The notes under the pieces are model-generated. The model made no database searches and had not been told where the DNA came from. It saw nothing but the letters and a program-made list of their open reading frames with translations. A stretch of 61,857 bases of DNA, filler included, from Hausera hauseri (taxonomy: Eukaryota), in assembly GCA_046269625.1 (NCBI GenBank). It is 11 parts of 11 records of this genome, joined end to end, with 100 filler letters (N's around TTAATTAATTAA, not from the genome) between each part and the next. Parts side by side here need not be neighbours in the genome. Positions count along the whole stretch, not along the records: positions 40,000 to 45,797 come from JBJURY010187415.1; 10 more parts are not named here. One strand, given 5' to 3'. Below are positions 16,581 through 54,951 of the stretch, piece after piece. Position numbers and translations under genes: made by a program. The number at the start of each line of letters is the position of its first letter. Position 1 is the first letter of the stretch.

Positions 16581-16584
16581 AATA

Positions 16585-18930: not shown

Positions 18931-18939
18931 TTCGCCTTA

Positions 18940-25414: not shown

Positions 25415-27178
25415 ATGATGTCATTGCCACTAGTCGTCATTTTGTTGAATATGTTGAGTGACGGTACGTCATTATGGGCTATCGTCGATAGTTTGCGTCC
25501 CATTGATGGACGGATTGTTTTGTTGTGTTTTTTGTGGTTGGTACAGTTGGCTGTTGTTGCTGCTCTATCTTTTATTGGTGGTAGATGTAATGGTTTGTTT
25601 TATTAATGAAAGTTTTATAAATTATTACCGAATCACTATGTATAAATAAATAATGGCTGTGATAAGTTTGTTGATGGAGGACAGGCTTTGAAAATTAGTT
25701 TGGTATGAACTTCGAGTTATGAATTTTCTGACTTTATTCTTTATTGACATGATGTCTTTCATATAAACAAATAATGACATGCTGTTGTTTATTTATACGT
25801 CTTAATCATTTATTAAATTTTATATTAATTAATTATTTTTATAATCGATGAATTTTTATTTTCTTATTGTACATTTAATTAACTTTGGAAGTTGGTAATA
25901 TTCAAAATATTTTTCTAATAATTATTAATTTAATTAATTAATTAGTTAATTAATTAATTAATCCAGGAATCATCAGTCTATTATTATCAACTGGCATCAT
26001 GATTACACTTATCCATCAACAAATCGTCACACCAAAAATCATCTACGATAATTATTACGTCATCATGGCCACTTCCATTCTCCTCTCCTTCATCATCTCA
26101 CTCATTCTACTCAAATCCTACATGGACAAATCGTCAAAAATTACGTCACACAAAAGTAAATCCATGCATATTCACACAAATTTCCTCTCTCATTCCAGAT
26201 GGAATTTTCTACAGTTTTCTTATCGGCCGCGGAGTCAATCCACGCATTTTCTCCTTGGATTTGAAATTCTTTTTCGAATTTCGTCCAGCATTCATCAATT
26301 GGACAATTCTGAACATCGTAATTTGTGCAAAGGATCTCGACGAAAACGGCTACCGTTCCATCAATCCGTCATTGGTAGCCACTGCCGTCTGTCAAATTAT
26401 TTATTGCACGGACGGGCTGCTGTTTGAAAGGACGATTCGATCGAAATCATTTTTTGTAAACGGCACATTCGGATTTATCCATTGTTTTGGTAGTTTGGTG
26501 TTTGTGCCATTCTTGTACACGATGACGAGTCGGGCTGTCCAGATGCGGAATTATCGATTACCGACAGACTGTCTGGTGGGGATTTGCATTGTGTATTTGG
26601 TTGGCTATGTCATGTACAGATCATCGAATTGGCAGAAGGATGAGTTCAGGAGGAATCCGTACGGTGTTCATGTCATACGTATGATTGATTGATTGTGTCG
26701 ATATTGATTTTGGTAGATTTGCGTACTGTTCCCAATGACTACGGTAGACAACTTCTTGTTGGTGGATGGTGGGGATTGTTGCGTCATCCGAATTACCTTG
26801 GTGACGTCATTATGACATTTTGTTGGTCATTGTGTGCAGGTTAATTATCTACTGACTAATAATAAGTAGTAATGAAATTTTTACCTTTTTTTTATTTAAA
26901 TTTTATTTAGTTATTTTTATTAAATTTTTTATTTTGGTTAATTTTATTTTTGTTGTTAATGAACTTGATTTTTTTAATTTTTTTTTAAATTAAAGTAATT
27001 AATTAAATTTATTTAAGGTATCCAATGGAATGTATTTCTATTGTATCCGATTTATTTTGTCATTTTCATTATTCGACGTTGTATTAATGACGAATACGAT
27101 TGTTCCAAAAAACATGGCCGAGCATGGATCGAATATAAGCGAATAGTTCGCTATCGTTTATTTCCGTTAATATTTTGA
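25415..27178 (+). CDS. Sterol reductase, ERG4/ERG24 family (LBR/TM7SF2-like), spliced
   Basis: Exons 25968-26155, 26199-26678, 26717-26839 and 27018-27178 with GT-AG introns give FLIGRGVNPRIFSLDLKFFFEFRP, RSSNWQKDEFRRNP, LLVGGWWGLLRHPNYLGD, DEYDCSKKHGRAWIEY..VRYRLFP. The first exon (from about 25415) is uncertain. Confidence 0.9.
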
Positions 27179-27242: not shown

Positions 27243-28533
27243 TTTTATAAATTTTATATTTATTTATGATTACGTCTGAATTTGGATATTTTCCATATTT
27301 CTTTAGTGTCAACATGGCAGCAATGTTTTATCATTTTTGTTTGTATTTATTAAATGTTTTGTCGTTTTTGTCTTCACACCGATAAATTTATCGGTAAATT
27401 TTATCGATGTTCGTAAGTACATTCTCGAATGAAATATCGAATATGAAAATAATTTCATAAAAATACAAATTTGCAATTGCATACACCGAAATCAAAATAC
27501 CCGAATAAAGTTTTGATGAGGAATTGTCCAATGAAAATATTCTGAAAATTTTTAACGAAATTTTCATCATGCGTGTTAAAAAACTGAAAATATTGCGAAA
27601 TTATCAAAAATTGGACCAGAACAAATTTCTGGTGAAGTTTATCAAAATTGCGCATAGAATATTCGATAAAAGTTGAAATGTGAATTTTTAATCATTTCAC
27701 TGGTATGACATACAATTTACGTCCAATGGCAGTGAATAGTCTGGTCACGGACTTATAACTTCGAATTTCGATAACAACCGCGAGAGGATTATCAGTTTTG
27801 TTTCAGCATGTCCCAGTTAAGAAGACAGTCCATTTGCGGAAGGGACATCCAAGCATGAGATAGCGAAATTCCAGTGGATATTTGGCAAGGCTCTTGAAAT
27901 ATGGAAAACAGTTGTTTAGAGGAATCTCAATCAAGATAAAGGTACGTTCATTGTATTATAGATAAAGGTAACAATTTTGAAAAAGAACATTTTATTCACC
28001 ATGTACTACTAAATTTGTCCATTGAAAATTTTTTGTCAATTTTTTCGTTCTAAACGATAATATTCCTGTATCCAATCATTTGACGATATTTATAGGCACG
28101 TAAAATATCACTTTTTCATTTGTTTATTTAAATAACTGNNNNNNNNNNNNNNNNNNNNNNNNNNNNNNNNNNNNNNNNNNNNTTAATTAATTAANNNNNN
28201 NNNNNNNNNNNNNNNNNNNNNNNNNNNNNNNNNNNNNNTGGTTGATCTTGACTGTATATTACGAGCCATACTCGGTGAGTACAATATCCTATAATCATCT
28301 TCCGCTCGTCGTCGATTAATGATCTGCATTTTCTTTAATCATCCGTATTGTTTTGTTCTTTCATAAGGGTCCTCATAACTAAAGGGTTTCCGACAGAGCT
28401 CAGATTTGTGTGACATCATATATATTCTATCGCGATCCTCATATATTGGAGCTGTTGGTGGAATGATAGGCAAGGGTGCCTTAATTACTGAATACATCTT
28501 GTGTCTATTTTATCTGAGAATCGCTTCTCCTCC

Positions 28534-30505
28534 CTAAGGCTCGTCTTCATCGGAGTTATCTCTTTGCGTTACTATTTTTTTAGTTTTTCGTTTTAATAGA
28601 AATGTGGGCCTTGCTCGTCGTTTATAATTATGATAGCCGACGTGTCGTTTAACGTCATTCTTCCACTGATTTTCTTCGTATGCTTTAAGCCTTTTGCCGA
28701 ACGGGGTTATAATTTCAGTTGAAATCTTGCATGAAAATCCTGTTAACGTGAATATTTTGTACCTGTTTATAACCGCTTGGATTACCGCCTTTACTAGTTG
28801 TACCAAGAAATAGATTTCTAAAAATTCAGATGCAACTTGTCCAAAGATTAGAAATCTTCCCCATATTTTGTAGAGTATTTCTGTGGTTACCCGTTGATAA
28901 TGGTTCGCACGAAGCAGGGACTCCCATTTAGCCTGGTAACGGGTATCATCTACTACTGATGTCATAGCTCGGTTTAACTCGTGTTCGCTGGCGTGGAAAA
29001 GCGAGAAATTGTCGAAAGGCTTTGATTTCTTTGGGCCTGTAAATGCCCTTTTGGGATGTATCCTGAAACTTGTCATGAGTAATTCCTTTTGCTAAATTAG
29101 TTCCAGTTAGTTTTTTAGGAAAGGTAGTGATATCTCCATTAGGTAAGCTAACCCAATCCGTTTCGCTGCACCTAAACATGGGTTCACCTATGCTTGCCTT
29201 ACAATCCTTTAAGATTGTAGGTTGTGTTGCGTTATCTAACAATACTCTAGTGAGGGAAATGGCTAACTGTGGAGTATTCTGGTAGATTACAGGAAGCTCT
29301 TGTATACATCGTTTTTCTTCGACATTAATTGGTACGTCTCTTTTCTCGCACTCATATGTCAGTAGAACTTCGCCAGTGACTCGGCCAAAGATTCCTTCTC
29401 TCATGGGAATAATCGGTGAGGCTAACTCAGGATTGGCGTAAATAAGGGCTCATTTTGTCCTCGTAATCTCCATATCTAATTTACAATAATTAGTTATTAT
29501 TTTATGGTATAGCTCGGATATTTGGACTTGTCCTTTGTAGTAGAAATAATCATCTCGGTTTTTCAGTTAATTCTCAATTAGAATGTCCTGCGTTTCTAAG
29601 TTATGTGTTTTCGCGTTTATCTCCGTTTCTGTGACGAAGAACGCTTCATAGTTAGTGGTGAACATTATTACTTCGCAACGTGAAATCATTTCTTTTTTTA
29701 TGAATTTCAATCCATGTTGATCAGAGATCAATATCGTAGGTGTATGATGCTCCGATACGTTTTCACGTGCTCTTAAACTGATATCAGATTTGTCTACGTA
29801 TCTTTTCCCGGTAGTTTTATTAAACTTCAATTCCTTAATCTTGAAAAAATTACATCTCTTTCCAGCGGGCGGTTCCCATATGATGACAGAACTTCTGAAA
29901 GCACAGGTTCCGTCCTGTACGTGACATTTTTGATTCTCGGTATACAGCTTAGTGACGCTATGGAACATCACTTTCTGGACTCGCATTTTCGATTCGTAAA
30001 AGTCTACTACTACTACGTTTGCTTTTAATCCTTTTCCGGTATCATATTCTGCTCCACTACAGTGCCCGTTATGCATATCTAGCCTACCAACTACTATCTT
30101 GTATGCTCTGATTATCTTTCCGGGCTGCATTTCTAGTTCCATACTATCCCATTTCAGTCTTCCGATTTCTCACGCCTGCTTGCAATTTTGTCTTTTCAAA
30201 TTTATTGGAATTGGAGGGGTTGTTGGTTTGATTACTGAGGAATGTCCATGCATTAATCCATAGTGGAAAATACTACGAAATCGTCTCTGCATACACTACA
30301 TGCCGTCCAAGGATATCAGTTCTTGTTGTTGATATAGAAAATAACTCTTCTCCTTTGTTTCCAATTTATGTGGTCTGGCATCTTCACATGCTTCTAAGTC
30401 CATTAATGAATATTTTTGTCCAAGCTTAAATCTATTGCGGTCGTAGATGGTGGCAGCGCCCATTTGTTTTATCAGCATCATTATGATGAGCAAACTAATT
30501 AACCA
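28534..30505 (-). pseudogene. env: Envelope glycoprotein, chuvirus G-like (A2), most complete copy
   Basis: Signal WLISLLIIMMLIKQMGA, YSLMDLEAC, GIFGRVTGEVLLTYEC..CIQELPV, C-terminal membrane region IWGRFLIFGQVASEFLEIYFLVQLVKAVIQAVIN and a basic tail. Confidence 0.82.
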
Positions 30506-33500
30506 ATTAGATTTATTCTTCCGGTTGTTATTATCCGCTATTGTTAAATTCCGTATGATATCTCTGAGTCCATTATTATTACGGTTCTTTTTGTCTTCTT
30601 CCTTGTCAAACAATTTTGGCCAATTTACTTCACATGAAAGCTTCCTATCTGCTTTTCGTGCCAAGCTTGTAGCTCGATTTAGTTCATCCTCTCAATTAGG
30701 ATTCGTCTTAATAGCCAAGTATAATAATATTTTTCTTAGCTCTTCTGTCGTATTCTCTACCATAATTTTCTCGACTACTGCGTCGTCAGTTAGGCTACAT
30801 ATTGACAGTTTAAAAAGCGAACTTCTTATTGTTCTAGCTACGTTAAATATAGTCTTTTCTTTCTCATCTAATGTACCTCCCCGAAGACTTGAATAATTTA
30901 CGATACGTATTAAATTTTTCATTAATTCGTTTAACTCCTCATTGTCTGTGCTAAAGGTAGAAATCGACATTTGTCTCAGTTCTCTAATTAATTCTCCGTT
31001 ATAGTCAACTTCTTTCCGGGCCTTCCTAGGCCTGCCGACAGGGCGTTTTGGCCTTGACACATTGGTCGTATTTCCGCTCCAAGGCACTAAATTTTTATCG
31101 CATTGTTCCTTGTCTTCATCTGTCTGTAAATACTCGAAAAACATTGCCGCATCTCGTACTCCCATGATTTTCCCTACGCATTGTTCTGTTTTAGCCTTTC
31201 GCGTGGCTTCTTCTTTTGTCTGTTCACTGGCTATTATTACTACTATCCGATTTGTTTCGTCGGGGATGATTCCGTCATCTATTAACTGTTCTAAATCGTC
31301 AAGTATTCTTCCTCTATAGTAAAATCTGTAATTAAGCTCATTTGTTCCGCCGTTGTTTAGTAATTATTCTCTTACGTCCTTTACGTAGGAATAAATAGTT
31401 AGCTCACATTCCTTTTCTTCTATCCACTCGGATGATACCATTACTTTCATCGTTATCTCAGGTTTATCCCTCAAGATTTTCTCATACTTCTTCATCAACA
31501 GTTTCGGCACCGTGCTGTAAATTGTGCTTTCACTAGATAGTTTAGTCAAGGTCAGAATAAGTTGTCTTAGCTTATTTTCAGAAATATTTACGTTAATTAG
31601 TTCAGTCAATTCCTTTTCAGTTAGCACTGAGTCCAGGAGCATTTCTATGTTGAATTTGCTGTTCTGTGGATACATTTATATTTTATTTAAATTTACCGGA
31701 GTTACAGGATTTTCTGCCGTTATTGCTTCTAAATAAGCATCCCATTCTGGTTCATTCCCAATATCTGGGAGTCCATAGTCTACTAGAGCTGTGTTCGTCC
31801 TTTGCACATTTTCTCGAATTTCTCTTAATTTTGGTTGTATTTCTTTCATTTGTGTACTCCGTAAACCTATCCCGTTTCCACAGGCATACTGAAATATTTT
31901 CAGTAGTTCGCCTAATTCACTAGAATTGATGAATCCCTTCTGGTGATAGTCGGTTAGTTCGATAATAAAGTCTCTTTGCCAAGGCTGCACGAATTCTAGC
32001 TTATTTTTGATTTCTGATTCCGTAAAAGCGTATTTATTCCCGTAGGCCTCAAACTTTTTTGCCAGTTCGTCTAGCTTCGTTGCTCTTTATTTCGTTCTGA
32101 TGCACGTTTCTTCAACTTGTACTAATTTGAGCATCAATTGCCTCATCTTCTCATCATTAATCTCCACCATTTCTATCAATAAGTAGGCTGGCCCATACAT
32201 CTCATTTATAATTTTTGAGTCGGGATCCATTGCGTCCAGCAGTTTCTTAACGAATCTAGATTCCTCGACACTAAGACGTTGGTTGTTTCTTATTTTTGTC
32301 AATTCGGTGTGACAATTCTCATCTGTACCGGCCATCCATTCTAGGTGTTTATGCAAGAATTTTACTGCTTCTGTTAGGGCTACTCTATTTTCTTCACAAA
32401 TATCTAAAGTTTCGATGTCCTGGATTGAAATCTCGTTGATAGGTTTGTCCATTAAATGTTGGATTCCTTCTCGTCGGATGCTTCTTAACCTTGAGTAAAA
32501 ATTGCAAGTCATATTTCGCTTTTCTGTAAAGTTCGTTTCTTCGATCATTTTATAGATTTTTCCAATATTGTCATTTCTTGCTTCTTCTTCATAAAATTTA
32601 ATCGTCATAATGCTTCGAACAGTGTCCAGATGTCTATTTCTGCTTGTATGGTGTTTAAGTTACGTGCACCTTCTTCTAATTGTCTTTTTACAGATGGTTC
32701 ACTCTCTGGAAATTCTTTCTTATAGTCTTCTACTAACTTGCTTAACCTCGTTATTAGTTCAGACCATTCTGACAATTGATTGGCAACTATTGGCTTTGCG
32801 AGTATTGCTTTATCTAGCATTTTATATGCATCTTTTAACTCATCATCTGGACCTTTTATGAAATTCATGATTTGGATAACATAATTGAATTTATCCTTAT
32901 ATTCGTCGAATTCTCTGATACAAGCTTTTATTATATATTTGGTTTCTTCGTTAATCATAAACATGATTCGATTTCTTAAACTGTTGATCTGCGATCTTCT
33001 TTTATTCGCCAATTTAATGCAACTATCTAAGTCCGTATATCGTCTGGGTTCGGCGAAAGCAATTTTTATCATCTCCATTAAGGGAGGAATATCTATCGCG
33101 TCTATACCCAATATTGCTAAATCGTTATCTTTTCGAATACTAACCACTTTTTCTCTAAGCTGTTTGATCACTGCATTACGGATTTCATCCATTTTACGTT
33201 CTAAGTTACGGGCTACTCTCTTCAACTTGGGATTAGCCTCTAAGATAGATAATAGTGTTTGCGCTTCAGAGACTTTTACACCGATACTATCCTCATCTTT
33301 ACCCCATCCTTATGAAAATTCAACTCCACTTTTAATCCATGACTCTAATTCGTGGTTCCATTTGATCAACGTATCTCGCGGCACCTCTTCAGATTGTTTT
33401 AGCTCGATTGCTTCATCGAGCTTTCCTTCGCTGCATAATTTTAAACTCTTGTATAATTTCTCCGCACATTTTTGTTCTTTACCGGATATATCTGTTTGTT

Positions 33501-34299
33501 TACTGATCTGATTAAGCCTTTCTAAATGGCATCGGAGTATCTCTGGATCGTGTCATCTAATTCTTATTCTCTTTAATTCATCGGCATTCGTCCATGAACG
33601 TCGAACTTTCCATTTTCTCGCATCAAGATCGTTATTGTCGTCCGTTTCTTCCTCGGAAGCGGACAAATTTCATTGATTTAGTCATTAATGTTTATTATAT
33701 CTGGTGTTTCCAACGTTTCTAGGTTTTTTTTAGGCGTAACAGTCGTCTCTAAGGACGAGTGGTCTTTTAGGATAGCAGTATAGAAGTCTTCTTTTTCTTC
33801 CACGTGTTCTTTAATGGGAGATCTTGAGCGAGTCTTGGATTTTCTCTTAGGCGATGGGCTTTTACCTCTATTCTTCGTTATCTTGAGAACTAAATGACCA
33901 ATAAATTCACTTTTGATCTCATCTGTTGTTTCATCTGGGTTGTACTTTTCGGATTCTGCGTCTAAATCTACGTTTTGAGATGTCGTTGGTTTCTCTGACT
34001 AGGTTATTCCTTGGGGAATAGACTTTTTACGTGCCATATTAGCATTATTTGGTTCCAGTGTGTATTCTTCCTCAGTTTGTGGTTCTCTTAATCCGTGATA
34101 GACTTCCATTAGCCGTAATTTCTCTTCATATTCTTTTCTAGTCTTTGTGACTTGAGGATTAGCAGTTTCACCTAGATTCCTTACCGATCTACGTAGATCT
34201 TGCATTTCAAGGATCATGTTTATATTACCTCGTTTACCATAGATGACTAAGTTATTTTTAATCATACTTATTTTGTTCGGTTCAGTAAATGTGACGCTT
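30506..34299 (-). pseudogene. Region X (A2)
   Basis: ORFs 32605-33225, 32087-32608, 31676-31990, 31364-31675 and 30692-31165 are homologous to A1/A3; AT-hook RPVGRPRK present. Confidence 0.8.
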
Positions 34300-35230
34300 C
34301 TAGGATTTGGGCATGACCTGGCGATATGTCCTACCTTGCCACATGTAAAAAAATTAGATTCCCATTCCGGCAAATCCTTTGTCGGCCATCCTCATTCTCG
34401 GGTGATTTTGATCGGTTTGTATTCGTATTCTGGCTGTGATATTCTTCTGTTATCTTTGTCATATCTATTCTCTTTATATTTATTATTGAGTCGGTAACTA
34501 CCTTGGTTCCTGTCTGAATTGTAACTCAGTTTATTATACGAGTTATTTCTTTGATTCCTATTGTGAGCATTTTGATTTCTGTTATCAAAACCTCGGTTTT
34601 AGTTGTTATCATTAAGTCATCTGTTATCTTGATTCTCGTTTCTATTTCGGTTATTACGGTCGTTATTCCTTTCATATTTATCACCTGGCTGGGCATATCT
34701 TTTCAATGCCTTTTTTAAGTCTCGGGCTAATTGTAACGTCCTCTCAGAATTATCGGGTCTGATCAGAATTAACTGTTTAACTAGATCTTTTGACCATATG
34801 CCATTTATTAGCTGAGTTGTCATCATGACGTCTAAATCTGGTGGTGTTGCCTTTTCCGCGGCATCACGTTCTGCGTCTCTCTTAGCTTTTGCTACATTGG
34901 CTATCCTCAAGGTACTTACATAACTATTAGCGAGTTTCTTCAATGTAAATGCAAACTGGGTTACCTATTCACCCTTCTGTTGCACTCTGTTTTGAAATGC
35001 CATAAGTTTCTGTTGCGGCGTTACTGTTGGCAGTAATTTACGGTTTAATGCTCGTTCCAGGGAGGACCAGGATTTCTTTTTATCGTTGGTAAGCTCACTA
35101 TAAGCATCGGCAGCTAAATTCTTTAGATACAGTGATAAACATTTTATCGTTACTTCAGGAGTGAGACTAGCACCTTCCGCGTGCAACTTATAAGTTCTCA
35201 AAAAATTGTTCAGTCCGTCCGGATCACCAT
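34300..35230 (-). pseudogene. gag: Gypsy-type Gag (A2)
   Basis: LYLKNLAADAYSEL, FQNRVQQKGE, knuckle FTCGKVGHIARSC. Confidence 0.85.
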
Positions 35231-39999: not shown

Positions 40000-40628
40000 C
40001 ATATTACGACTGAGCTCCTAAAAGCACACGTTCCATCTTGTATATGACATTTCTGGTTCTCGGTATATAATTTTGTGACGCTATGGAACATCACTTTTTG
40101 TGATCGCATTTCTGCTTCATAGAAATCCACAACCACGACGTTCGATTCTAGTCCTTTTCCGGTATCGTATTCTGCTCCATTACAATGCCCGCTATGCATA
40201 TCCAGCCTCCCGGCTACTACTTTATATGCTCTGATTATTTTTTCGGGTTTCATCTCCAGTTGCATACTATCCCATTGTATCCTTCCGGTTTCCTTAGCTT
40301 GTTTGCAATGTTGACGCTCCAAATTCATCGGAATTAAAGGAGTGGTGGGCTATATTATGGAAGAGTGCCCATGTATTAGTCCACAGTGAAAAATACTGCG
40401 TGACCGTTTTAGCATGCACTCTATTCCATCTAACGACACCAATTCTTGTTGTTGATACAGGAAGTAATTTTTTTCTCGTGTTTCTAGTTTGTGCGGTCTC
40501 GCGTCCTCACAGGCTTCTAAGTCCATTAAGGAATATCTCTGTCCTAATTTAAACTTGTCACAATCATAGACGGTTACTGCACTTATGTGTTTTATTAGCA
40601 TCATCAATGTAAGTAAGCTAATTAGCCA
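40000..40628 (-). pseudogene. env: Envelope glycoprotein N-terminal part (A3)
   Basis: WLISLLTLMMLIKHISAVTVYDC..YSLMDLEAC..CMLKRSRSIFHCG, in the same ORF (40350-41540) as the end of region X. Confidence 0.82.
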
Positions 40629-43600
40629 ATTCGATTCGTTTTTTCGACCTCCAACGTCTGACACTGTCAGATTACGCAGCATATCATCGAGTTTATTACT
40701 GGTTCGTTTGTCCTCTTCCTTCTCAAATAGTCTTGCCCAATTTACTTCGCAAGGCATCTTTCTTGCTGCTTTCCGTGCTAAATTTATTGCTCGGTTAATT
40801 TCAGTTTCTCGGTTTGGGTTTATTTTGATGGCTAAGTACAGCAAGACTTTTCTCAATTCTTCATTCGTGTTCTCTACCATGATCTTTTCTATTACTGACT
40901 CATCGGTTAAGTTACTTTTTGATAGTTTGAAACGTGAACTTTTCATCATTTTGGCTGCCTCAAAAATTATCTTTTCTCTATCGTCTAATACATCTCCTCG
41001 AAGGCCGGAGTAATTTACAATTCGTATTAAATTCTTCATTAATTCACTTAATTTTTCGTTATCTGGGCTCAAAGTCGGAATCGACATCTGTCTTAATTCT
41101 CTCATTAATTCCCCGTTGTAGGCCACTTCTTCCCGCATTTTTCTAGGTCTACCTACTGGACGTTTTGATCTTGCGCCTTTCGGGGTTGCTTCGCTTAGCG
41201 GTACTAAATTTATGTCATATTGTTCCTTATTTTCGTCTGTTTGTAAATATTCGAAATATAATGCAGCGTCTCGGACTCCCATGATTTGTCCGACACATTG
41301 TTCTGCTTTAGCCTTACGTGTAGCTTCCTCTTTTGTCTGCTCGTTAGCTATTGTAACTACTATTCGGTTTGTTTCATCAGGAATAATCCCAACATCTATT
41401 AATTGTTCTAGGTCATCGAGTATTCTACCTCTAAAGTAAAATCTATAGTTTAACTCCTTCGTTCCACCATTGTTTGTTAGCCATTCTCTTACGTCCTTTA
41501 CGTAAGCATGTGTAGTCAACTTGCACTCTTTTTCGTCCATCTATTCGGATGACACCATAACTTTCATCGTCATCTCAGGTTTAGTCCTTAAGATTTTAGC
41601 ATACTCCCTTATCAAAAGTTTCGGCACCGTACTATAAATCGTATTTTCGTTGGATAATTTAGTTAAAGTTGGAACAAGTTGTCGTAGTTTATTCTCGGTA
41701 ATATTTACGTTAAGTAATTCCATCAAATTCTTTTCATTTAAAGCTGAATCTAGTATCATTTCCACATTAAATCTCTTGTCTTTGGTACCTGTTTCTGATT
41801 CGTTTAGCTGTATTGGAGTCGTGGGTTTTCCGGCAAGTATTTCGTCAAAGTAGGCATCCCATTCTGGTTCGTTTCCGACATCCGGAAGTCGGTAGTCCGC
41901 TAAAGCTGTATTGGTCCTTTGAACGTTTTCCCGAAATTCCCTTAACTTAGGTTGTATTTCTTTCATTTTCGTAGTTCGGAATCCTACTCCATTACCACAG
42001 GCATATTGAATCATCTTCAATAATTCACCGAATTCGTTAGAGTCGATTACCCCTTTTTGATGATAATCTGTTAATTCAAGAATCACATCCTTTTGCCATC
42101 TTTGTACAAATTCTCGTTTATTCCTAATTTCGGACTCGGTGAAAGCATATTTGTTTGGTAGACTTCAAGTTCTTTTGTTATTTCGTCTAACCTTATTGCT
42201 CTTTGCTTCGTTTTGATACATGTTTCTTCTACTTTCTGTATCTTGTGCATCAATTTCCTCATCTGCTCGTCACTGATTTCCGCCATTTCCGTCAATAAAT
42301 ATGCCAATTCATACATCTCATTTATAACCTTTGAATCAGGGTCCATCGCATCCGACAACTTCTTCACGAATTTGTGTTCCTGAAAACTAAAATGTGGGTC
42401 GTTTCCTATTTCTATCAACTTGGTGTGGAAATTCTGATCTGATCCGGCCATCCATTCTTGAGGTTGGTGTAGAAACCTTAGCGCATCCGTTAACATATCT
42501 CGGTATCCTGGACAAATGTCCAAGGTTTCCATGTCTTGTGCAGAAATTTCGTCGATTGGTTTCCCGATTAGGTATTGAATTCCTTCTAATCGAACAATCC
42601 TTAACTTCGAGTTTACCTCGTAGATCATATTCCGTTTCTCTGTAAAGTTCGTTTCTTCGATCAATTTATAGATTACCTCCATCGTTGATATTTCCCGTTC
42701 TCTTTCCATGAATTTTAGTTGTCGTAATGCTTCAAATTGAGTTCGGATATCTATTTCTATTCGCAACGTAGCTAAATTATGTGCACTTTCCTCTAGTTGC
42801 TTTTTCACCGTTGGATCGCTTTGCGGAAATTCCGCTTTTCGATCATCTGCTAATTTGGTTAGTTGGTTTACTAGCTCGGACCATTCCGACAATTGATTTG
42901 TTATTAGGGGTTTCGCCATTATAGCTTTATCTAGTATCTTATAGGCATATTTTAACTCATCGTCCGGTACTTTTAAGAAATTCATAACTCGTCCGATATA
43001 GCTAAATTCGTCCTTGTATTCGTCCAACTCTACGATACAAGCCTTTATTATATATTGAGTCTCCTCATAAATTGGGGACAGAATTCGGTTCCTCAAGCTA
43101 TAAATTTGTGCTCGCTTTTCGGTTTCTATCTTCAGCCGATTTTCCAAGTTTGTACCTTGTTTGGGCGTGGCAAATGCAATTTTTATCATTTCCATTCGGA
43201 AAGGAATATCCAACGGGTCTATACCCAATACTTCCAGGTCGATATTACTGCGATGGTTAACCGGTTTTTCCCTAAGTCGTTGGGTTATTGTGTATCGGAT
43301 TTCGTCCATCATACGTTCTAAATTACGGACTACTCTCTTCAGTTTTGAATTCTCCTCCAACGTTGATAATAACGTTTGAGCCTTGGCGGTTGTTACGTTT
43401 ATACCCTCTTTATTTTTACTCCATCCTTCTAAAATTCCCATCCCGCTCTTAGTCCACAATTCCAATTCATGTTTCCATCTAGATAATATTTCCGGGGACA
43501 CTTTTTCAGGTTGCCTCACATCGATTGCTTCAGCGAACTTCCCTTCGCTACGTAATTTCAAGCTTTTATGTAACTTCTCGGCGTACTGCTGCTCTTTTTC

Positions 43601-44430
43601 CGATATATCGACTTGTTCTGCAATCTGCTTGAGCTTCTCTAAATTCTGCTGTAATGCTTCGGGCTCTAAACAATAGATTCTCATTTTCTTTAATTTGTCG
43701 GAGTTTTTCATGAGAGTCGGATCTTCCTTTTTTTATTTGAAATTATCATTGTCGGCCGTTTCTTCCTCACTAGTGGGCAGTGGGCAAATCTCATTAATTT
43801 CCTCAATTAACTCTATTGGTTCCGCTATTTCAATAGGTGTGTATGGACCAACTTGTGGCGTATGTAGACTATGCTCCATGTCGTCTTTTTTTGACATTCG
43901 GGTTTCCCGTTTCTTCCGTTTTCTCTTTGCTTATCTGGGAGCGTAAACGACTTTTACGTTTGGTTTTTAGTAAAGGGCTACGACCTCTATTTTTCGTAAT
44001 CTTAAGTATTAATGGTTCCATAAATTCCCTTTCCGCTGTATCGTCCTCTACCCTCTTGACTGGAAGTTTGGGTTCTGCGTCTAGATCGATTTGCTTCGAT
44101 ATGCCTGGTTCATCTGGCGGCTTGTTACTTGTCGGAATATTCTTTTTCCGTATCATATCGCTTCACTTTAGTGCTATTTCATGTTCGTATTCCGACTCTG
44201 GTTCCACTAAACCATGATATACCTCTAACAATCTCAACTTGTCTCCATATTCTCTTCTGGCCATTAGAATTTGTGTGTTCGTAGTATCTGGTTGAGCATC
44301 CAAAAATTTTCTCAAATCCTGTATATCGATGATGGTGGCTGTATCTCCGCGAACGCCATACTTTGTTTCTAAGTTCTCGTTATTTCTAATCATACTTGTC
44401 TTATTTGGTTCAATAAATGAAACGCTACGC
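40629..44430 (-). pseudogene. Region X (A3), with ubiquitin-like domain and AT-hook
   Basis: 542-aa, 181-aa and 396-aa ORFs; YRFYFRGRILDDLEQLIDVGI; RPVGRPRK. Confidence 0.82.
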
Positions 44431-45797
44431 GGATTTGGACATGACCTTGAAATGTGTCCTTCTTTGCCGCAAGTAAAACAAATCAAATTCCCGTTCCTGC
44501 CGACTCTCTGTCGACCGTCTTCATTTTCTGGTGACTTAGGTGTATTTAAACTTTTATTAAACTAATTTGACAAACTTTGCATATTGTCGGCATTTCGTTT
44601 GTTGTCGTTACTTCGGTTATCACCGATTTGATTCGAGTACGTCGAACTTCTATAATTTCCTCTATTCCTATCCCAATTTGGGTCTGGCCTGTTCGTATAA
44701 TTATTACCTCTGTAGCTGTCATTATTATTCCTATACCCATAATTTCTGTTGCCCATAAATCGTCTGTCGTCTCGTCTTTCCTCTCTTCTGTCATTCTTTC
44801 CATGATTGTCATTGCGATTTCTATCATTACGGTCATTTCGCTCATTATTCCTATCGTTTCTGTCATTGTGTCTGGCGTATTTATTCAACGCCATTTCTAA
44901 ATCTTGGGCTAGCCGTAACGTCCCTTCAAAATTTTCAAGTCTAGCCAGAATTAATTGTTTAACTAAGTTACGTGACCGGATACCATTTATCAGTTGCGTC
45001 GTCATCATAACATCTAGATCTGGTGGTGAGACCTTCTCTGCGGCGTCACGTTCTGCCTCCGTCTTAGCTTTAGCTACATTGGCTATCCTTAGCGTACAAA
45101 TATAACTGTTCGCAAGCTTCTTCAACGCAAATGCGAACTGGGTTACCGATTCACCTTTTTGCTGTATTCGGTTCTGAAATGCCATGAGTATTTGTTGCGG
45201 TGTCACTGTCGGCAACAGTTTTCTATTTAGTGCTCCTACCAGGGAGGACCAAGATTTCTTCTCGTCATTAGAGAGTTCACTATAGGCATCGGCGACTAAA
45301 TTTTTCAAGTACAACGACAATCGTTTAATCATTAGTTCCGGAGTTAAACCAGCGCTTTCTGCATGCAATTTATAAGTCCTCAGAAATTCGTTGAGCCCAT
45401 CTGGGTCTCCGTCGTATGCCGGCAGGTTAAGAGAATCAAACGTGAAAATGTCCAGTTTCTGTGCTACTGGTGGATTATCTGCTGCCATATTATTTACTTT
45501 ATCTAACTCTATATTTGCTTTATTCACCTTAAGTTTTTCCCGTGGAGTTTTAAATTTGTTATCGTTTTTAACGTCGTCTAGTTTACTTCTATTCTCGGAA
45601 TTCGATCGTTTATCTACTTTTTCTGTTTCTCTATATATATTTCTACGTGTCTCACGTATAGGGGAATTATCTTTCAGTATATGGTTTAATCCTGGTCTAT
45701 CAATGATTGTTCTCGGTTACGTTTGTTTTACTTATCCTCGTTCAATGATCTTATATCCCGATAGATTTAAGTTTTCAATATGTGTTCAATTACTTGG
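44431..45797 (-). pseudogene. gag: Gypsy-type Gag (A3) with intact CCHC knuckle
   Basis: 321-aa ORF with FQNRIQQKGESVTQFAFALKKLA; after one in-frame stop, CFTCGKEGHISRSC. Confidence 0.88.
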
Positions 45798-45897: not shown

Positions 45898-46458
45898 TTG
45901 GAACCAGAAATTCGCTTTTCCGGCCTGTTCCATGTAAAGTGCTTCATCGGAAAACGGTGCAACGTATAAATTAGCAACCGTTGGATACATCACAGTTTGA
46001 ATATCACGTCTGAGAAACTTTTTAGCATGGACATACGTTTCTAACATTCGTTCATTAAATAGCATATAACCCATCGGTTCAGAAATAAGAATATCAACTG
46101 GTTCCGGAATATTAACTTCCTCGATTTTCCCACTGACAACAATAATTTTCCCAGCTAATTTATTATTCTGAACAAGCTGTTCACAAAATTTTGCCATGTT
46201 ACTCGCTTCAACAGCGTAAACTTTCTTTGCGCCTGCTTGAACAGCAAAAAAACTCAGAATCCCAGAACCAGCACCAACGTCAAGAACGACTTTATTCCGA
46301 AAATCAACGCAATTGCTTAAAATGGCTCGTTTGTATGTCGATGTGCGACTGTAATCCTGTGTCATATTCTGTTGTTGACTCAAAAAACTGTAAAATTGAA
46401 AATACTGACTTGCCGACCATTTCTCTGTTCGATTAACGTTTTCAAAACACGAGGCCAT
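45898..46458 (-). CDS. CARM1: Histone-arginine methyltransferase CARM1/PRMT4, partial (runs into the contig end)
   Basis: [71 protein letters not shown] are CARM1-specific motifs. Confidence 0.95.
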
Positions 46459-47820
46459 CAAATTTCAAAATTTTAAAATTCAAAATTTCGCCAATAATAC
46501 TTATTCTGATTCCACATTACAACATTAAGGCATTAAAACAAAGTGCCTCAATAACAATTATAACAATAACTACCCATGAATTCAACTGAATTCGAAAAAG
46601 CATCCGATTATTTTTCATTGAGAAATATTAAACCTGGTTCATGTTTGTTTCAAATTCATTTTTATATTTTAAAAAATTGCACATGAAAAATTATAGGCAT
46701 TTTTGAACCCGGAAAACAATACTTGAATCATATCCCAACTGTAAAAACTAACCAAAATCAAAGACAGATTTCGATTTTTTTTGTTTATTATATGTGATAA
46801 GTTTAAGCGTATGAAATTCACTTGGTCCTACGACCTTAAACTTATACTATCGATTCTCAACTTGGACTCTCTCCTTGTTCCAAGTTCGATTTAATTATTC
46901 ACGGTATTCAGCAGCCTGTGGGTCTGCTGAAATTTAGGAATTTGATTTAGTTACTTTTTCCTAATGTGTGAGTTCGGTCGGGAGGTACACCGACGTCGCT
47001 CTCCCTTATTTAATATAATTTTGACAACCGACCTGTATTAAAGGAAGGTATACCAAAAGGGGTTTATAGTTTATTCTAGATTTTGACTATTGATATACAA
47101 TACTCTTTACTTAAATTACTAATATAAACCAATAAAACAACAAACCAATAAACCAAAAGACCAAACAATGAGAATTTTAATAAAATTGAATTCTATAAGT
47201 CTTAGTTATAACAATCAAAATAACATAACAAAAGAAATAAAACAATACACTTACAGTTGTCGTAAATAACATTCATAGTATACCGTAGATCGAGGTTATA
47301 AGACTTGCGTCAAGAAAAAGAGGTGGTATAATACAATCCATACCAGTATATATAGTTATGGTTTAACAACAGAAATTTACATAGTAAACAAAAATCAATT
47401 ATTTTAAATTCAAAGAAAAATAAAAATCATTTTTATAATCACAAATCAATGTAACTGTTCAAGAGAGTTTTTAGGAATCCATTTGCACAAAATTGAGGTA
47501 ATTGCTTTTTTATTTATTTAGTCAATGACTTTATTATCTTTGTTTCAGATAGGATTTCTTAGAACGGTAATTGTTTGTTTTGTAAATGCATTTGTTTTGT
47601 TTATTTTAGGTTGAGTTTCTCCGGACTGCACAGAATGTTAGACGACACAATTTTTATACTGTCTTAGTGGCAAGTTAACAATATCGGTTTTGTTTCCTAA
47701 TAGTTTACTTATTGAATCTTTTTACACTTTGTACACTTTTATATCAATATAATTTGTATTCAGTATTGTCGTGACTTGTGATTTACCCTCGATCAAAAAT
47801 ACATATTGCAAAATAATATT

Positions 47821-47834: not shown

Positions 47835-48192
47835 ATCAAGGAAGGCGGATTTTACAAGCAGTTTATAAATTCATATGAATTTGGATTTTATCAAAGAAAT
47901 ATTTTATCAAAACGATATTATTTCATTCACTTCTTAGGCTATTCATTCGGCTTTAAAAAGAAAGCAGTATATGACACAGTATTAAACAAGCTTGATAGTA
48001 GACAGAGAGAGATTACAAAACAATTAACAAGATTTGAAAGGATTCCAGAAGATAAAATTGTAGTTTGGATTAAAGAATAATATTACTACATTAAAAATTT
48101 GGACTCGACAATCAGATAAGAAATTTACCAAATTATTTCCCGAGTTAGACGACAATATTCTTAATAAAATACTCTTATTAGAAAGAGCCAAA

Positions 48193-49145
48193 ATGTCAAC
48201 AGAAAGACAGACAACTGAAAAACGAACCTATACTATTGAGCATTTAGACATAAATGTAGAGAGATTCAACGGAAACCCAGAGAAATTGTTTTCCTTTTTC
48301 AAAAGTTACAAATCTCAAAGTGCAGCAAAAGGCCTTGATGAAAAGGAAATGATCAGAAGATTACCCTTATCATTAACAGATATAGCTGTCGATGCATACA
48401 ATGACCTCACAAATGATTCAAACAGCCTTTATCGATCGATTTTATCCCACATTGTCTCCACATCAACAGTTGATTAAACTTCAAAACAGGTATCAGTTAT
48501 ACGGTGAAAGTACGACCCAGTACGCTTACGCTCTAAGACAAATTGTGGCTCAATACGTCGAAGCAGTACGCTTAGAAGCTCTAAAGAAGAAAAACTGATG
48601 AAAAAGAATTAAAAACAGACATTTTGTTACTTACACAATTCCTAAATGGACTTAATCCTGACTTACGATATAAAGTGCAGGCTAAATATCGTAGCGATTT
48701 TGTTGACGCATTAAAAGCTCCTCAAATGATCGAGTCATTTACGCCTTTAAAAAGACCGAGAAATACAGATCGCAATTTCGACAATGAATCACGAAGAAGT
48801 GACAATCGACGAAATGAACGTTTCGAAAGTGATTATCGCTTTAATAACCGGCAGAATGACCGAAGAAATCGGGATAATATAGAAATAGATTACGATCGAG
48901 ATGATTACCGACGACGATATGATAAACCAGATTCAATGAATTTTACTGAGAAACAAACGAATGTAAAACAAGACAGTTATTGCCATACGAAAAGAGTAAC
49001 TCTCCTCCAACCGAACACAGAGTTCGATTTGCTCAAGAAACACCGTATCAAAAAGATGGACGACAAGAAATAACTAAAACAGGCAAAATGGTAACTTGTT
49101 ACCGATGTAATAAAATGGGACATTATGCTAGTTCATGCCAAGAGC
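48193..49145 (+). pseudogene. gag: Gypsy-type Gag (subfamily B)
   Basis: ERFNGNPEKL..EMIRRLPLSLTDIAVDAYNDL, LQNRYQLYGESTTQYAYALRQ, LLTQFLNGL, CYRCNKMGHYASSC. Confidence 0.85.
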
Positions 49146-50560
49146 CATCGAAATCAATGGAGAAAAAGTCTAGCGCTGCAATGCATAAAGTTAAAACTGA
49201 TGATACCACAGAGGATTTCTTGCAAAGAGTTTCTGAGTTGACCTCGGAAGAAAGAAACCTTACAGCTAGCGCTCTCAGAAAAATGGATTCAGATATTGAC
49301 CAAATTCTTAGACGATTCAATGTACATACAAGCAATAGTTTTTCAAAATATTACTGCCATGGCATATTTGATGATATAAATAAAAATGTACCCTTAGCTA
49401 AACCTGCTCAGGCTAAGGCCATTACTAAATTAATAATTATAGAAGCAAGAACAGAAGCAAAGAATAGGTTCATTCTCGGTGAACCACTACCAGAAGTTGA
49501 TGAATTCATGCTTGAATGTTTTCCAATAGATCCAAATGTGGCTGTATGTACACAGAATAAAGGATCTGCAAATAAGAAACCAGAAAAAAAGAAAAAGGAA
49601 TATAAATTTTCAGGCTATAAAATACCTAAGAAAAAACCAGAAAAAAACTGAAATCATCTATCACCAGTTGGGATATTAAATATGGACAAATTCATACAAA
49701 ACATGAAGTACCAAAAGAATTAATTCCATCCACCTCAAAACAAGAGGAACCACCAGTTACCAAACCGACAATTCAGGTTGAGAAAAAATACCAAGATGTA
49801 GCTAAAGAAACATTGAAGCAAATGCAACCAAAGATTAGAGAACAGATACAAAAAGATCTGGCGAAAACAAACCAAGGAAAAATCCCTAAAGGACTAGAGT
49901 TATCCAAGTTAATAAACACTTACATAGAAAAGGACTGCATAAGTAAAATGAATGAAAACGACAAAGAAAAATTGATCAAAGAAATTTATAGATTACGTGA
50001 AAACGACTTTGTACCCGAACCTAGATATCTATTAGAAGTTGAAAAACAAGAAAAGATTAATAAGCAAATAAGAAGTTAAGAAGTTAGAGAAATTTATTAT
50101 ATAGATATTGGAAAGGATTCGATCACTCCCCGATCTCCAAAATGGAAGAAATGAGTTAAGGAACAGCGGAAATTTATGAAGAATCTTAAGAAAAATTCAG
50201 TGGAAAACTTCACAATTGACGATATTGTACAATTAATATTAAAAAAGCCATCTCGCATAAATTTCGAAAAGGTGATATTGCTTCTAATATCTGAGACACC
50301 TAATGAAGCTAATTTAAAGGCCACAACTGATAAAATAATTCATGCTAGTAAAACGATAATTCCGCAATATGGAAAATGGAGTGACCTATTTCTACGCAAC
50401 GAAAACGAAAAATTACTCGAAACAACCAACAAATATAGAAAAAGCTATTCAAGAAATTACTTTAAATGCATCTCATGACGAGATTGTTCCCATTATTATG
50501 GAGAAAATGACTAGTCAATTACAAGAAGAAATTCAGAAAAGTGATGGTGTAAAGTCCAAT
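49146..50560 (+). pseudogene. Region X of subfamily B (about 470 codons)
   Basis: ORFs 48980-49651, 49813-50079, 50176-50478 and 50369-50668; distal part resembles the end of subfamily A region X. Confidence 0.65.
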
Positions 50561-50727
50561 GGAATATTTATGCAACTTATGTTACTTTTATTAGTGTTAT
50601 TTTCCAATTTTAAAAGGACCGGAACAATATTAGCTTATGATTGCAATCAAATATATGAAGGAAGTTAATACTCATTGATGGATCTTCAATCATGCCCGGA
50701 CGCTCCTCAGAGAAAATTAGAGACTCA
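50561..50727 (+). pseudogene. env: Envelope glycoprotein start (subfamily B)
   Basis: GIFMQLMLLLLVLFSNFKRTGTILAYDCNQIYEGS*YSLMDLQSCPDAPQRKLET versus A3 TVYDCDKFKLGQRYSLMDLEACEDARPHKLET. Confidence 0.8.
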
Positions 50728-51249: not shown

Positions 51250-54200
51250 TTATGGGGTAAAATTAAATATCTGAAAAAGAGTTTTTGTTCTTATAAGTTT
51301 CTTATTATTAAAATTAAGCTTATCAATAGAGGCAATATATATTTTTAGGTCAGTTTCTTTAAAATTATTAAAAGAGGGTATTTTTTCATTCCACTTCATT
51401 TTGTGTATATAATATTTTGCCAAAATAATAATTAAATTTATTATAAATAGTTCGTCTGAAGAAAATAATGAATTATTAAATATTAGCAAAATTTGCATTT
51501 TTGATAACTTAATGTACTTTTTAATTTTTTTAGTAAGCAGTTCTTGTATTTCAGACCAGAATATTGTAATATGAAAACAATCTACAAATAGATGGTCAAT
51601 ACTTTCACCTTCACACTGGCAAAAAGAGCAGTTTTTGCTGACGTTTGGGAAGAAACTGCAAACGTAGTCTTTGACTGGATAATATCTATGTAAAATTTTA
51701 AATACAAATTCTTTAATTCGATTAGATAAAATATATTTATAAGACAATAAGAAAATTTCACTCCATAGTTTATTGCTCAAGTAGCCCCATCTATGTTTAC
51801 TTATGGGAGTAGAGGAAGTAACTAACTGAGATCTGATAAACCTGTTATTGAAATTCTTATGCATTATGTTAGTACCTTCAATAGAAACTGAATCATAAAA
51901 GTATAATTCTTCTAAATGTATGGTTTGTGCTAGTGCATGTAAATTATGAGGAATAGAATTAATGACCAAACCAAATTCTTTTTGAGATATATTTATATCA
52001 TTAATGTTAATAAAATTCTCATAAGTATACCATTCACCATTAATGTCAAGTAACTGCTTTATCAGATAAATATTTTTGTTAGCCCAATTATGTAAGTATA
52101 AAGATTTGTTTTTATATAAAATATAAGCATTGTTCCATATGATGCAGTTATGAGGAGAGTAGTTATGTTTATATAGCAAAGACCAACATAAGAGAGCCTG
52201 TTGATGGAACTTAGCTAACTTGATGGGAAGTTTTCCAACTGAGTAAGGGCAACGCAACAAAAAGTTAATACCCCCCAATTTATTAAACAAATAATTTGGG
52301 AAAATATTCCACATAGAATTTAAATTTTTTAGGAATCTTTTAATCCAATTAATTTTTAAGATTTGATTAAAAACAGAAAATGTCAAAATATTTAAGCCTC
52401 CTTCATCTAAAGAATTTGAGAGGACAGATTTTTTAATTTTATGAGCTTTATTTTTCCATAGAAATTTGAAAAGAATCTTATCAAGTTCAGAACAGAGCGC
52501 TTTACTGACCTCTAGTGATGAAAAAATATAAGACGCCCTTGACATCCCCTCTGCTTTGCTTAATAGCACTCTACCATAAATAGTTAAATCCCTGGCTGAC
52601 CAAATATTAAATTTCTTTCTGATAGATTCAGAAACCAGATTAAAGTTATTACTTTTTTATTGTGATCTGTTGATATTTTAATACCTAGATAATTTACAGT
52701 GTTTTTTACAGGGATCCCACAGACTTCAGAGATAGCGGTCGTAAATAAGGGAAGGATTTCCCATTTTTTAAGATTAAGTTTCAGTCCAGAAATGTTAGAG
52801 AAATTGGATACAATAGATAGAGCTACAAGAAATTCACTAGAATCTTTTAAAAATATTGTTGTATCATCGGCAAGTAGAGAAATTTTAAGTTCTCGATCAA
52901 AAAATTTGATTCCTTCAAAGGAGCTCTGTCTGATTAAATAGTTTAGAATTTGGCCTACAAGTAGAAATATGTAAGGGGAGGCCGGACAACCCTGACGAAC
53001 TCCTTTATTGATATTGAAACGACTAGAAGTGCCATATGAAAGTTTAATAGAGCTATTATTATCTCTGTAAAGAGTCTTAAAGGCTTTAATGAAAAAATTA
53101 CCAAAGTTAAAAAAGGATAATGTATCAAAAATGAAGTTGTGACTAACAGTATCAAAAGCCTTCTGAAAATCCAGGAAGAGAATAATTGGATCACCAGAGA
53201 TGAGTTCTTTATAATCAGCTAAGTCCAGCACTAAACGGATGTTATCAGAAATATTACGTCCTGGCATAAAGCCGTTTTGAGATTCATGTATTAACTCATT
53301 CAAACAATTTTTCAGTCTTTTAGCTAAAATACATGCCAATATCTTATAGTCATTATTTAATAAAGTGATAGCACGCCAATTATCTATTATTAACTGGTCT
53401 TTATTTGGTTTGGGAATCAGAGTGATGAGACCCTGTTTCATTGATGTTGGTAATTCTACATTGTTAATAGATTCATATAAACTGCCAGAAGAAATTCAGA
53501 AATTTCAGATGAGAATTTGTGATAAAATTCTGAGGTCAAGCCATCGTTGCCAGGTGACTTGTTAGATTTTAGGTTTTTGATGCCCCATTTTATTTCTTCA
53601 TTACAGAGTGCATCATCGCATTCCTCTTTTAGAGAGTCATTAACTTTGTTTACCTCTACTAATGAGTTTAATAAACATGTGCTATCCATACAATCATCGT
53701 TTTTATACAGCTCTCTATAAAAATCTGACACATATTTTGAGATTACAGAGTAATCCTCAGTTACATTATCATTTATATTTAGTTTAGATAGTGATTTCCA
53801 TTCTGTGTTTCTTTTTCCCATATTAAAAAAGTATTTACTGTTTTTTTCACCCTTCTCAATCCATTTTAATCTAGAGCGAATGAAAGCACCACGGGCTTTT
53901 TCTTTATATATCTCGTCTAATTCTTCTTGATAATTTTGTAGTTGTGTTACAAGAACTTCATCATCTGATGTAATGGCAGTAATATTTGAGATGGATCTAA
54001 TTAACTGCTCTAACTTTTCTCTTTTTTTACGTTTTAATATTTTACTAAATTGGATCACATATTTTCTAATTTCATATTTGAGTAGTTCCCAATATTTCCC
54101 AAACTGGTTTTTATTTTGAGCAATTGTCCAGTACTGTGTGATTAGTTTTTGAATAGATAATGTAAGTTCTGTGTTATTTAGTAGTGAGTTGTTAAGTTTC

Positions 54201-54951
54201 CAGTGGTTATACACTCTTCTGCTCTCCTTATTGGAAAGATTTAATTTCAAAGAAATGGTTTTATGATCAGTTAAAACTGCAGGGGAAATCTTTACCTCTG
54301 TTACTTGTTTCTCCAGTTCTTCTGAAATAAGCCATAAGTCAATTCTAGATTGAGCAGAGAGAGTTTTGTTACTCTAGGTGTATTGACTGCTGGAGGGATG
54401 TCGATGTCTCCAAATGTCCAATAAATTCAGTCTGTTAGAAAAGTCCATAAGAAGATTTTGTCCATTTCTAAGTCTTGAAGGACATCTGTCTAGCTGAGGG
54501 GACCAAACCAAATTAAAATCTCCTCCTAAAATAACCTTTGCTGATGGGAATTTGGTACAAAGAAATAACATAGAGTCCTCCAACTCCTTCAAGAAAATCA
54601 AGTTTAAAGAATCAGAATTATATCCATAAATATTACCCAACAGAAAAATGTAGGAATGAAATTCAATCACTATGAAGATCCAATGACCCTTATTATCAGT
54701 TTGACATCTAGAATTTTACCTTTGAAGTTGTCTTTTAATGTAGCTACTCCCCCTGATTTGTTTGAACCATGTGATAACCATAAATCTTTGCCCCATTGGG
54801 ATTTCCAAAAGGTTTCATCTTCCAAACATGAGTGACATTCCTGAAGAAAAATGAAATCCGCTCTTGCCTCTTTAGCAAACAAAAATAAAGCTTTTCTTTT
54901 TATATTATTCCGCAAACCCCTTGTATTAACAGATAAGAATGATAACTCCAA
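51250..54951 (-). pseudogene. L1 ORF2 (endonuclease, reverse transcriptase, zinc-binding region), interrupted
   Basis: LSVNTRGL, FLQECH, GGDFN, KSPGNDG, WRAITLLNNDYKI, LDFQKAFD, GVRQGCPASP, LLADD, CSFC..ESIDHLFVDC; three frameshifts and one stop. Confidence 0.93.

Follow-up and report, generated by a model that had tools for sequence, protein, structure and literature searches.

The question raised by this locus is whether the Gag, X and Env regions of a broken retroelement were once translated as a single chain with Env released at an internal signal peptide, and whether that chain, as the first-pass annotation proposed, ended after Env at about 2,400 aa and worked without a protease of its own. 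The window, a stretch of 61,857 nucleotides assembled from Hausera hauseri sequence, consists of 11 unrelated contigs with N spacers between them; a 118-nt "repeat family" considered as an LTR was rejected, as it is the N spacer. Three decayed copies of one element, all of them encoded on the minus strand, each lie on their own contig: A3 (contig 40000-45797), A2 (28239-35230 for both contig and copy) and A1 (contig 9940-17470, copy 9940-16270). Copy A2 runs from Gag to a complete Env with a membrane anchor at about 28,770-28,825 and a cytosolic tail reaching the contig end, 208 codons past the membrane-proximal Trp, while A1 runs from Gag to mid-Env and, like A3, is cut by its contig end inside Env. 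A fourth, divergent relative, B1 (48064-50727, plus strand), contains Gag, a knuckle, a shorter spacer, the signal and the Env start, and is also cut by its contig end. The host of the three copies is likely a flatworm, a call that rests indirectly on a CARM1 gene piece from another contig of the window, which groups with flatworms (98/98 in a tree of 28 rows).

The domain order was read most closely in A3, where all features lie on the minus strand. Gag, comprising a capsid region and an Arg/Asn-rich nucleocapsid stretch, occupies 44565-45716; the Pfam Retrotrans_gag match was weak (E 0.098 in A3 and 0.0025 in A1), and tblastn aligned A3 Gag with the Gag of relative P0004 at 39% identity (E 9e-17). 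It is followed by a single CCHC zinc knuckle at 44433-44480 (Pfam zf-CCHC, E 7e-07) and by a low-complexity basic/acidic linker at 43707-44432, the least conserved coding part (pN 0.30 vs pS 0.71-0.79), the 3' end of which is broken differently in each of the three copies. The next region, X, covers about 710 codons at 41568-43706 with pN of 0.15 to 0.38 vs pS of 0.72 to 0.81, and its last third aligns with P0004. X matched no Pfam or PDB entry, its profile retrieved nothing from PDB, and the search for homologues among longer proteins at E<=0.001 returned none, which is a weak negative. It contains no hydrophobic segment and is presumed to be cytosolic. Between the knuckle and Env, no match to a PR, RT or IN family was obtained in A1-A3.

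Downstream of X, the evidence for a ubiquitin-like domain at 41364-41567 is weak but consistent, with a Pfam ubiquitin match in A1 (E 0.001) and 15 ubiquitin-like entries among the 22 PDB matches of a three-copy profile at E<=5 (best E 0.023). The helical domain at 40710-41105 is a candidate Bcl-2-like domain by position only, as it aligns with the place of such a domain in relatives P0002, P0004, P0015, P0024 and P0026, and the Pfam Bcl-2 matches in P0015, P0024 and P0026 are themselves weak. Two structure models of this region were both of low confidence (mean pLDDT 47.6 and 42.4); for the first, the input alignment of which misplaced the Bcl-2 segments of the relatives, the Bcl-2 family made up 11 of the 50 matches listed (best Z 4.1, rmsd 3.0, 62 aligned), and for the second no Bcl-2 entry was among the matches listed. 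Foldseek with a structure model gave no match, the Bcl-2 profile score of 5 bits was within the range of shuffles, and profile-profile comparison of the region was not significant. An internal signal-peptide-like segment follows at 40578-40628, with predicted cleavage between 40578 and 40577, and then the N-terminal part of a chuvirus/gB-like class III Env at 40000-40577 (Pfam Monjiviricetes_fusion, E 2e-08 and 4e-05). This Env (PF24664) lies downstream of Gag and in the frame of Gag, with one junction bridged only across copies.

To evaluate the common frame, the breaks in the three copies were compared in register. Over about 6,300 codons read, 29 in-frame stops were counted (4 in A3, 19 in A2 and 6 in A1), in comparison to 125 to 150 stop triplets per average frame. 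For 26 of these an in-register codon exists in another copy, and in none of the 26 is that codon also a stop. The individual junctions described by the first-pass annotation were borne out: A3 is open at 40350-41540 from X, by way of the hydrophobic segment, to the start of Env, the aligned Trp is a TAG in A1 at 11412-11414, both A1 and A2 have a sense codon in place of the A3 stop at 41541-41543, the A3 frameshift, placed at about 42157, falls where A2 keeps the frame, and A1 is open from the capsid end to the knuckle (ORF 15033-15821). The more general statement, that each junction broken in one copy is open in another, holds for the junctions it named; it had passed over the junction from linker to X (about 43,700-43,790 in A3), which is broken at different sites in all three copies, so that no single copy bridges it. 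In all eight regions compared among A1-A3, pN was far below a saturated pS, and purifying selection acted on Gag, X and Env alike.

The clustering of the three linker-to-X breaks within about 75 nt would be expected if Gag formed a separate frame and X-Env-Pol were reached through a programmed frameshift in the linker. However, the break sites differ, the net phase that results is a different one in each copy, two of the three copies keep register over each half of the stretch, which consists of A-rich low-complexity DNA, and four relatives (P0004, P0006, P0011 and P0018) are open from Gag to Env over the same junctions; we regard a programmed frameshift as very unlikely. The break map and these open relatives, together with the conserved cleavage site described below, support Gag-X-Env as one reading frame with an internal cleavable signal.

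According to the rule of von Heijne, a cleavable signal has small residues at positions -3 and -1 behind its hydrophobic core. Among 28 sequences, this (-3,-1) pattern was present at one offset in 26, in comparison to 3 to 16 at ten other offsets, and the segment is the only hydrophobic one in the A3 pieces scanned. A predicted signal-peptidase site directly before Env is thus well supported. A different reading accepts the single frame in the DNA and has the working Env come mainly from an RNA that is spliced or starts internally, as for the env of Drosophila gypsy, so that the segment would be an ordinary N-terminal signal peptide. Its h-region is indeed short, about 11 to 13 residues, as in N-terminal signals, a Met lies 14 residues upstream in A1 and 19 in A3, and the 1:1:1 ratio of Gag, Env and Pol that one chain would give would be unusual. 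Several short relatives start at a Met directly before the signal, as they would with a separate Env start or if genes were called in broken copies. On the other hand, the nearest Met in A2 is 87 residues away, so that no Met is conserved, and in relatives the distance ranges from 1 to 220. A weak scan of the 300 nt upstream of the signal gave no strong splice acceptor (best 9/13 pyrimidines), with the best sites unmatched across the three copies, and the upstream frame is open and selected as far as the signal. Production of Env from its own RNA is therefore considered unlikely. As to the proposal of one chain with Env released by signal peptidase, the single frame and the (-3,-1) site stand, and we infer that one chain was translated, rather than Env being made from a spliced RNA.

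The remaining part of the question is where the chain ends. The homologue search found 26 relatives, and in all 18 that were scanned the Env belonged to the same family; identity to these relatives is about 24% to 36% across Env and X, and the searches turned up none that is both close and full-length. The frame of P0004 contains Gag, knuckle, a weak ubiquitin-like domain and Env, and its alignment with A3 covers 646 columns of X, ubiquitin-like domain and Env (24% identity, E 3e-32). Among nine relatives with a complete Env, eight run on in frame into an aspartyl protease; the frames of P0001, P0003, P0008 and P0018 extend to RT, RNase H and integrase, and that of P0018 is a single one of 2,146 aa with Gag, knuckle, signal, Env and Pol. 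A search with A2 X-Env among proteins of 2,091 to 5,000 aa at E<=0.001 returned nothing, a weak negative, and no related locus was found in viral contigs or JGI metagenomes. In the window, an RNase H-integrase piece at 21065-22954 was rejected as the pol of this element, given its coding-strand AT skew of 0.02 vs 0.26 to 0.27 and just 25% to 34% identity to the Pol of the relatives.

An element without pol, in which the chain ends soon after Env, host enzymes suffice and Pol is borrowed from an autonomous relative, would account for the four contigs (A1, A2, A3 and B1) on which no pol was seen, for the lack of a protease motif in the 208 codons of A2 past the membrane-proximal Trp, where five of the seven relatives that could be measured have it within 148 to 196 residues (225 and 391 in the other two), and for P0015, which ends 69 residues past that Trp. 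Against this, each of the four contigs breaks off within Env or shortly past it; the A2 frame past the anchor still looks coding, with 3 stops in 177 codons where the other frames have 9 and 21, and with its A-rich skew unchanged; and the protease follows Env in the eight relatives mentioned. Saturated synonymous divergence with purifying selection also fits long-lived autonomous lineages better than a pol-less element, which we judge to be quite unlikely. A similarly small chance is given to a long-lived, high-copy enveloped satellite, in which Gag-X-Ubl-Bcl-2-like-Env would be one chain cut by signal peptidase only, the cut signal would anchor Gag, and the enzymes of a Burro-like helper would mobilise it. 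For the chain of about 2,400 aa, the frame does span Gag-X-Env, and the figure itself arose because the contigs stop within Env or shortly past it, so that it marks contig ends rather than the end of the chain. The protease-free reading is probably wrong, since a protease lies downstream in frame in most relatives and the A2 frame continues beyond the Env anchor until its contig ends.

Thus A1-A3 are broken, contig-cut copies of a retroelement that likely belongs with the flatworm Ty3/gypsy elements of the Burro-like GAG-ENV-POL group, with a single frame that probably encoded Gag, X, Env, protease, RT and integrase. In the model that we propose for such a frame, the genomic RNA would be the template for the whole chain, and Gag-X-Ubl and the Bcl-2-like candidate would remain cytosolic. 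The sole hydrophobic segment would act as an internal signal and engage the ER translocon, host signal peptidase would cleave directly before the conserved Env start while the Env ectodomain enters the lumen, and the C-terminal Env anchor would bring the chain back to the cytosol. The element's own aspartyl protease could then cut Pol from the Env tail and mature Gag, so that both host and element enzymes would be needed. The cleaved signal may stay as a C-terminal membrane anchor of the Gag-X precursor, in the position that the tail anchor of a Bcl-2 protein normally takes. Structural polyproteins of flaviviruses, hepaciviruses and togaviruses likewise have an internal signal, cut by signal peptidase, that separates a cytosolic capsid part from a glycoprotein. 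The likeness is in the way of working and not in homology, and it differs in that A1-A3 have a cytosolic part of about 1,700 aa before the signal and in that retroelement enzymes likely follow Env.

Among known retroelements, Burro, described with GYPSM1 among the giant gypsy-like LTR elements that planarians carry (Arkhipova and Yushenova 2019, PMC6431247, citing Grohme 2018 and Jurka 2007), is given there the order Gag, Ubl, BCL2, Env and PR-RT-RH-IN in one ORF. From these domain descriptions, rather than from direct sequence comparison, A1-A3 resemble Burro in the single ORF, the Gag with CCHC knuckle, the ubiquitin-like domain, the Bcl-2-like position and the in-frame Env similar to mononegaviral fusion proteins, as well as in decay, as the Dugesia japonica copies are reported to be broken by stops and frameshifts (PMC6431247). 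They differ in having one knuckle in comparison to two or three in Burro, in the MATH domain, which was not detected in A1-A3, and in an X without a recognised domain; the A1-A3 contigs show no pol or LTRs and do not give the total size. The "ancient errantiviruses" of Chary and Hayashi (eLife, PMC13524379), GAG-ENV-POL elements with an HSV/gB-type ENV listed from Platyhelminthes (nine elements, six of them from Schmidtea mediterranea), Nematoda and Bryozoa, share the gene order and Env class, and are intact, in contrast to the broken copies here. Their ENV ectodomain is placed between a signal peptide and a TM, or between two TMs; the main text does not contain "polyprotein", "ubiquitin" or "splic", so that processing is not discussed there. 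Atlas virus of hookworm (Belpaoviridae, PMC9094657) is similar in having one retroelement polyprotein of 2,828 aa that includes Env, with glycoproteins arranged like precursors cleaved by cellular proteases, and is different in its Gag-Pol-Env order, class II phlebovirus-like Env and Bel/Pao lineage; a layout with Pol between Gag and Env, as in Atlas-type single ORFs or in Belpaoviridae with a chuvirus glycoprotein, was not encountered in A1-A3.

The single-ORF layout of Gag, Ubl, Bcl2, Env and Pol is thus already published for planarian Burro (PMC6431247), as is the GAG-ENV-POL order for the errantiviruses (PMC13524379), and A1-A3 mainly add another flatworm-type family. A processing model for Burro was not found in the literature search at listing level, and Grohme 2018 or Sacco 2022 may already describe processing. 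The modest addition made here is a concrete processing model for Gag-Env-Pol single-frame elements, in which the conserved signal-peptidase site sets the predicted start of mature Env for the group, and which implies a flavivirus-like threading where the leftover signal tethers Gag and the Env tail tethers Pol. Such a model would make it possible to test how particles are built, and how Gag:Env:Pol ratios are set, in retroelements that carry env between gag and pol.

The window is composed of 11 separate contigs of 4.3-7.5 kb each, joined by N spacers and not representing a single locus, and three copies of the Gag-X-Env retroelement, A1 (9940-17470), A2 (28239-35230) and A3 (40000-45797), lie on the minus strand of their own contigs with 66-76% identity in blastn blocks. 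A fourth relative, B1 (48064-50727, plus strand), is more distant from these copies than they are from each other. When A3 was compared with two public contig sets, 10,177 and 674 pieces were placed, the first set possibly being the source sample itself, and all 30 bins were covered; the pieces being so numerous and mostly less than 95% alike, the A3 element family is large. A CARM1 gene piece was grouped with flatworms outside the parasitic group (98/98, tree of 28 rows), and the host is thus likely a free-living flatworm, as judged from a contig other than those of A1-A3. An uninterrupted 188-codon CARM1 piece (45899-46464, minus strand), about 1.6 kb upstream of the B1 Gag on the same contig, may be host-gene cargo in the 5' end of that element. 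Other contents of the window include a contig (35331-39899) consisting wholly of satellite DNA with a 120-bp unit (2 x 60), arranged as three blocks whose orientation alternates, a frameshifted LINE-type ORF2 with endonuclease, RT and zf-RVT and a coiled-coil ORF upstream (51250-54715, minus), an RNase H-integrase piece of a gypsy element whose base composition differs, with Bel/Pao fragments after it (17571-22956, minus), and a host gene piece of ERG4/ERG24, lamin B receptor-like (26003-26692, plus).

The domain order in A1-A3 is Gag (a weak Pfam Retrotrans_gag match), one CCHC knuckle, a low-complexity linker, X, a ubiquitin-like domain (Ubl), a helical domain, a hydrophobic segment, and Env, which is a Monjiviricetes fusion glycoprotein of the chuvirus/gB-like class III; no protease, RT or integrase was found between knuckle and Env. 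The X region, about 710 codons, gave no Pfam or PDB match, and the Ubl was matched by Pfam in A1 (E 0.001), with 15 of 22 PDB matches at E<=5 being ubiquitin-like. By position, the helical domain lines up with parts of relatives that have weak Pfam Bcl-2 matches (E 8e-05 to 0.012); one low-confidence model of it returned Bcl-2 entries in 11 of 50 rows (Z <=4.1), a second model returned none, and a profile score fell inside the shuffle range.

The copies were read in mutually homologous frames, about 6,300 codons in total. The results showed 29 in-frame stops (4 in A3, 19 in A2 and 6 in A1), and a stop at the same position in the copies, the observation singled out by the first-pass annotation as counting against one chain, was seen for 0 of the 26 with an in-register codon in another copy. 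Assignable frameshifts (about 4 in A3, 5 in A2 and 8 in A1) also differ in site between copies, and for the two A3 stops present in the read tables, related contigs read otherwise at nearly all depth. Across all eight regions, capsid through Env with X and the signal included, non-synonymous difference was 0.08-0.38 while synonymous difference was saturated at 0.71-0.94. With private breaks and this low non-synonymous difference, A1-A3 are thus old sub-lineages whose frame was kept under selection and whose decay is recent. The earlier descriptions of individual frames, stops and frameshifts were all borne out on re-reading, and every junction named there is open or a simple stop in another copy, but the linker-to-X boundary (A3 ~43,700-43,790), which had been missed, is broken in all three copies within about 75 nt. 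A programmed shift after Gag might be proposed for this boundary, but it is very improbable given that break site and net phase differ in each copy. For the same reason, and because two of the three copies stay in register over either half of this region, one frame is the simplest reading here, though it is bridged only across copies and whole in none.

Within the A3 pieces scanned, hydrophobicity is confined to a single segment, 40578-40628. Signal-peptidase sites carry small residues at -3 and -1 (the rule of von Heijne), and such residues occur in 26 of 28 sequences at one offset, 3 residues before a conserved aromatic-Asp-Cys; ten other offsets gave 3-16 of 28. The 28 sequences comprised all four copies in the window plus 24 of the 26 database matches, P0016 and P0019 being omitted as they are without the upstream part. 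No conserved Met was found upstream of the signal, and no strong splice acceptor shared by A1-A3 emerged from a weak scan. A subgenomic env RNA made in addition to the open frame, which would be compatible with a single ORF, is considered unlikely.

The A3 junction ORF, used as query in a full search, returned 26 proteins, 18 of which were scanned with Pfam; all 18 carry the same Env family, internal in the long relatives. The frame is open from Gag to Env in P0004, P0006, P0011 and P0018, and A3 aligned with P0004 in one 646-column block spanning X, Ubl and Env (24%, E 3e-32). The proposal of one Gag-X-Env frame with an internal signal is supported by the break map, the cleavage-type site and these relatives, but its companion, a chain ending after Env without an element protease, is not supported, since eight of the nine relatives with complete Env run in frame into an aspartyl protease. 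In four of them (P0001, P0003, P0008 and P0018) the frame extends as far as RT, RNase H and integrase, and P0015 ends soon after the Env anchor. The contigs of the element all end inside or just after Env. The A2 frame beyond the anchor is still coding-like, with 3 stops in 177 codons (the other frames have 9 and 21) and its A-rich skew retained, which together with the relatives argues against a pol-less element; the 208 A2 codons after the membrane-proximal Trp, in favor of it, have no protease motif, which is reached by 196 in five of seven measurable relatives and at 225 and 391 in the other two. Weighing these, we regard a pol-less element as rather improbable and Pol downstream of Env as likely. 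Tandem aspartyl-protease-like domains, with two to four motifs after Env, were seen in P0001, P0002, P0006, P0012 and P0027, the last having six such Pfam stretches.

The mechanism has as its basis one selected frame, the domain order up to Env and the conserved cleavage-type site, and the element is quite probably a Gag-Env-Pol single-ORF element. The chain would be translated from genomic RNA, the internal signal recognised within the growing chain, the Env N-terminus freed by signal peptidase and the chain brought back to the cytosol by the Env anchor, where an element protease would release Pol and process Gag to its mature form; the signal left behind would serve as membrane anchor of the Gag-X-Ubl-Bcl-2-like precursor. 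The element would work like the GAG-ENV-POL gypsy elements with gB-type Env that Chary and Hayashi list from flatworms, nematodes and bryozoans (PMC13524379), and like Atlas virus, a single Gag-Pol-Env polyprotein of a different lineage (PMC9094657). Gag, Ubl and in-frame Env are shared with Burro-like elements, the giant gypsy-like planarian LTR retroelements. The earlier interpretation is partly supported, and the element is a further case of an already known kind.

All four relatives extending well beyond integrase (P0001, P0003, P0008 and P0027) have a second signal-like segment there, followed at a distance of roughly 240-400 residues by another hydrophobic one. This module may represent an additional type I membrane protein released from the same polyprotein, and is a candidate for the attachment partner of the gB-type Env. 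The useful outcome is the conserved signal-peptidase site, along with this second signal-plus-anchor module of the relatives.
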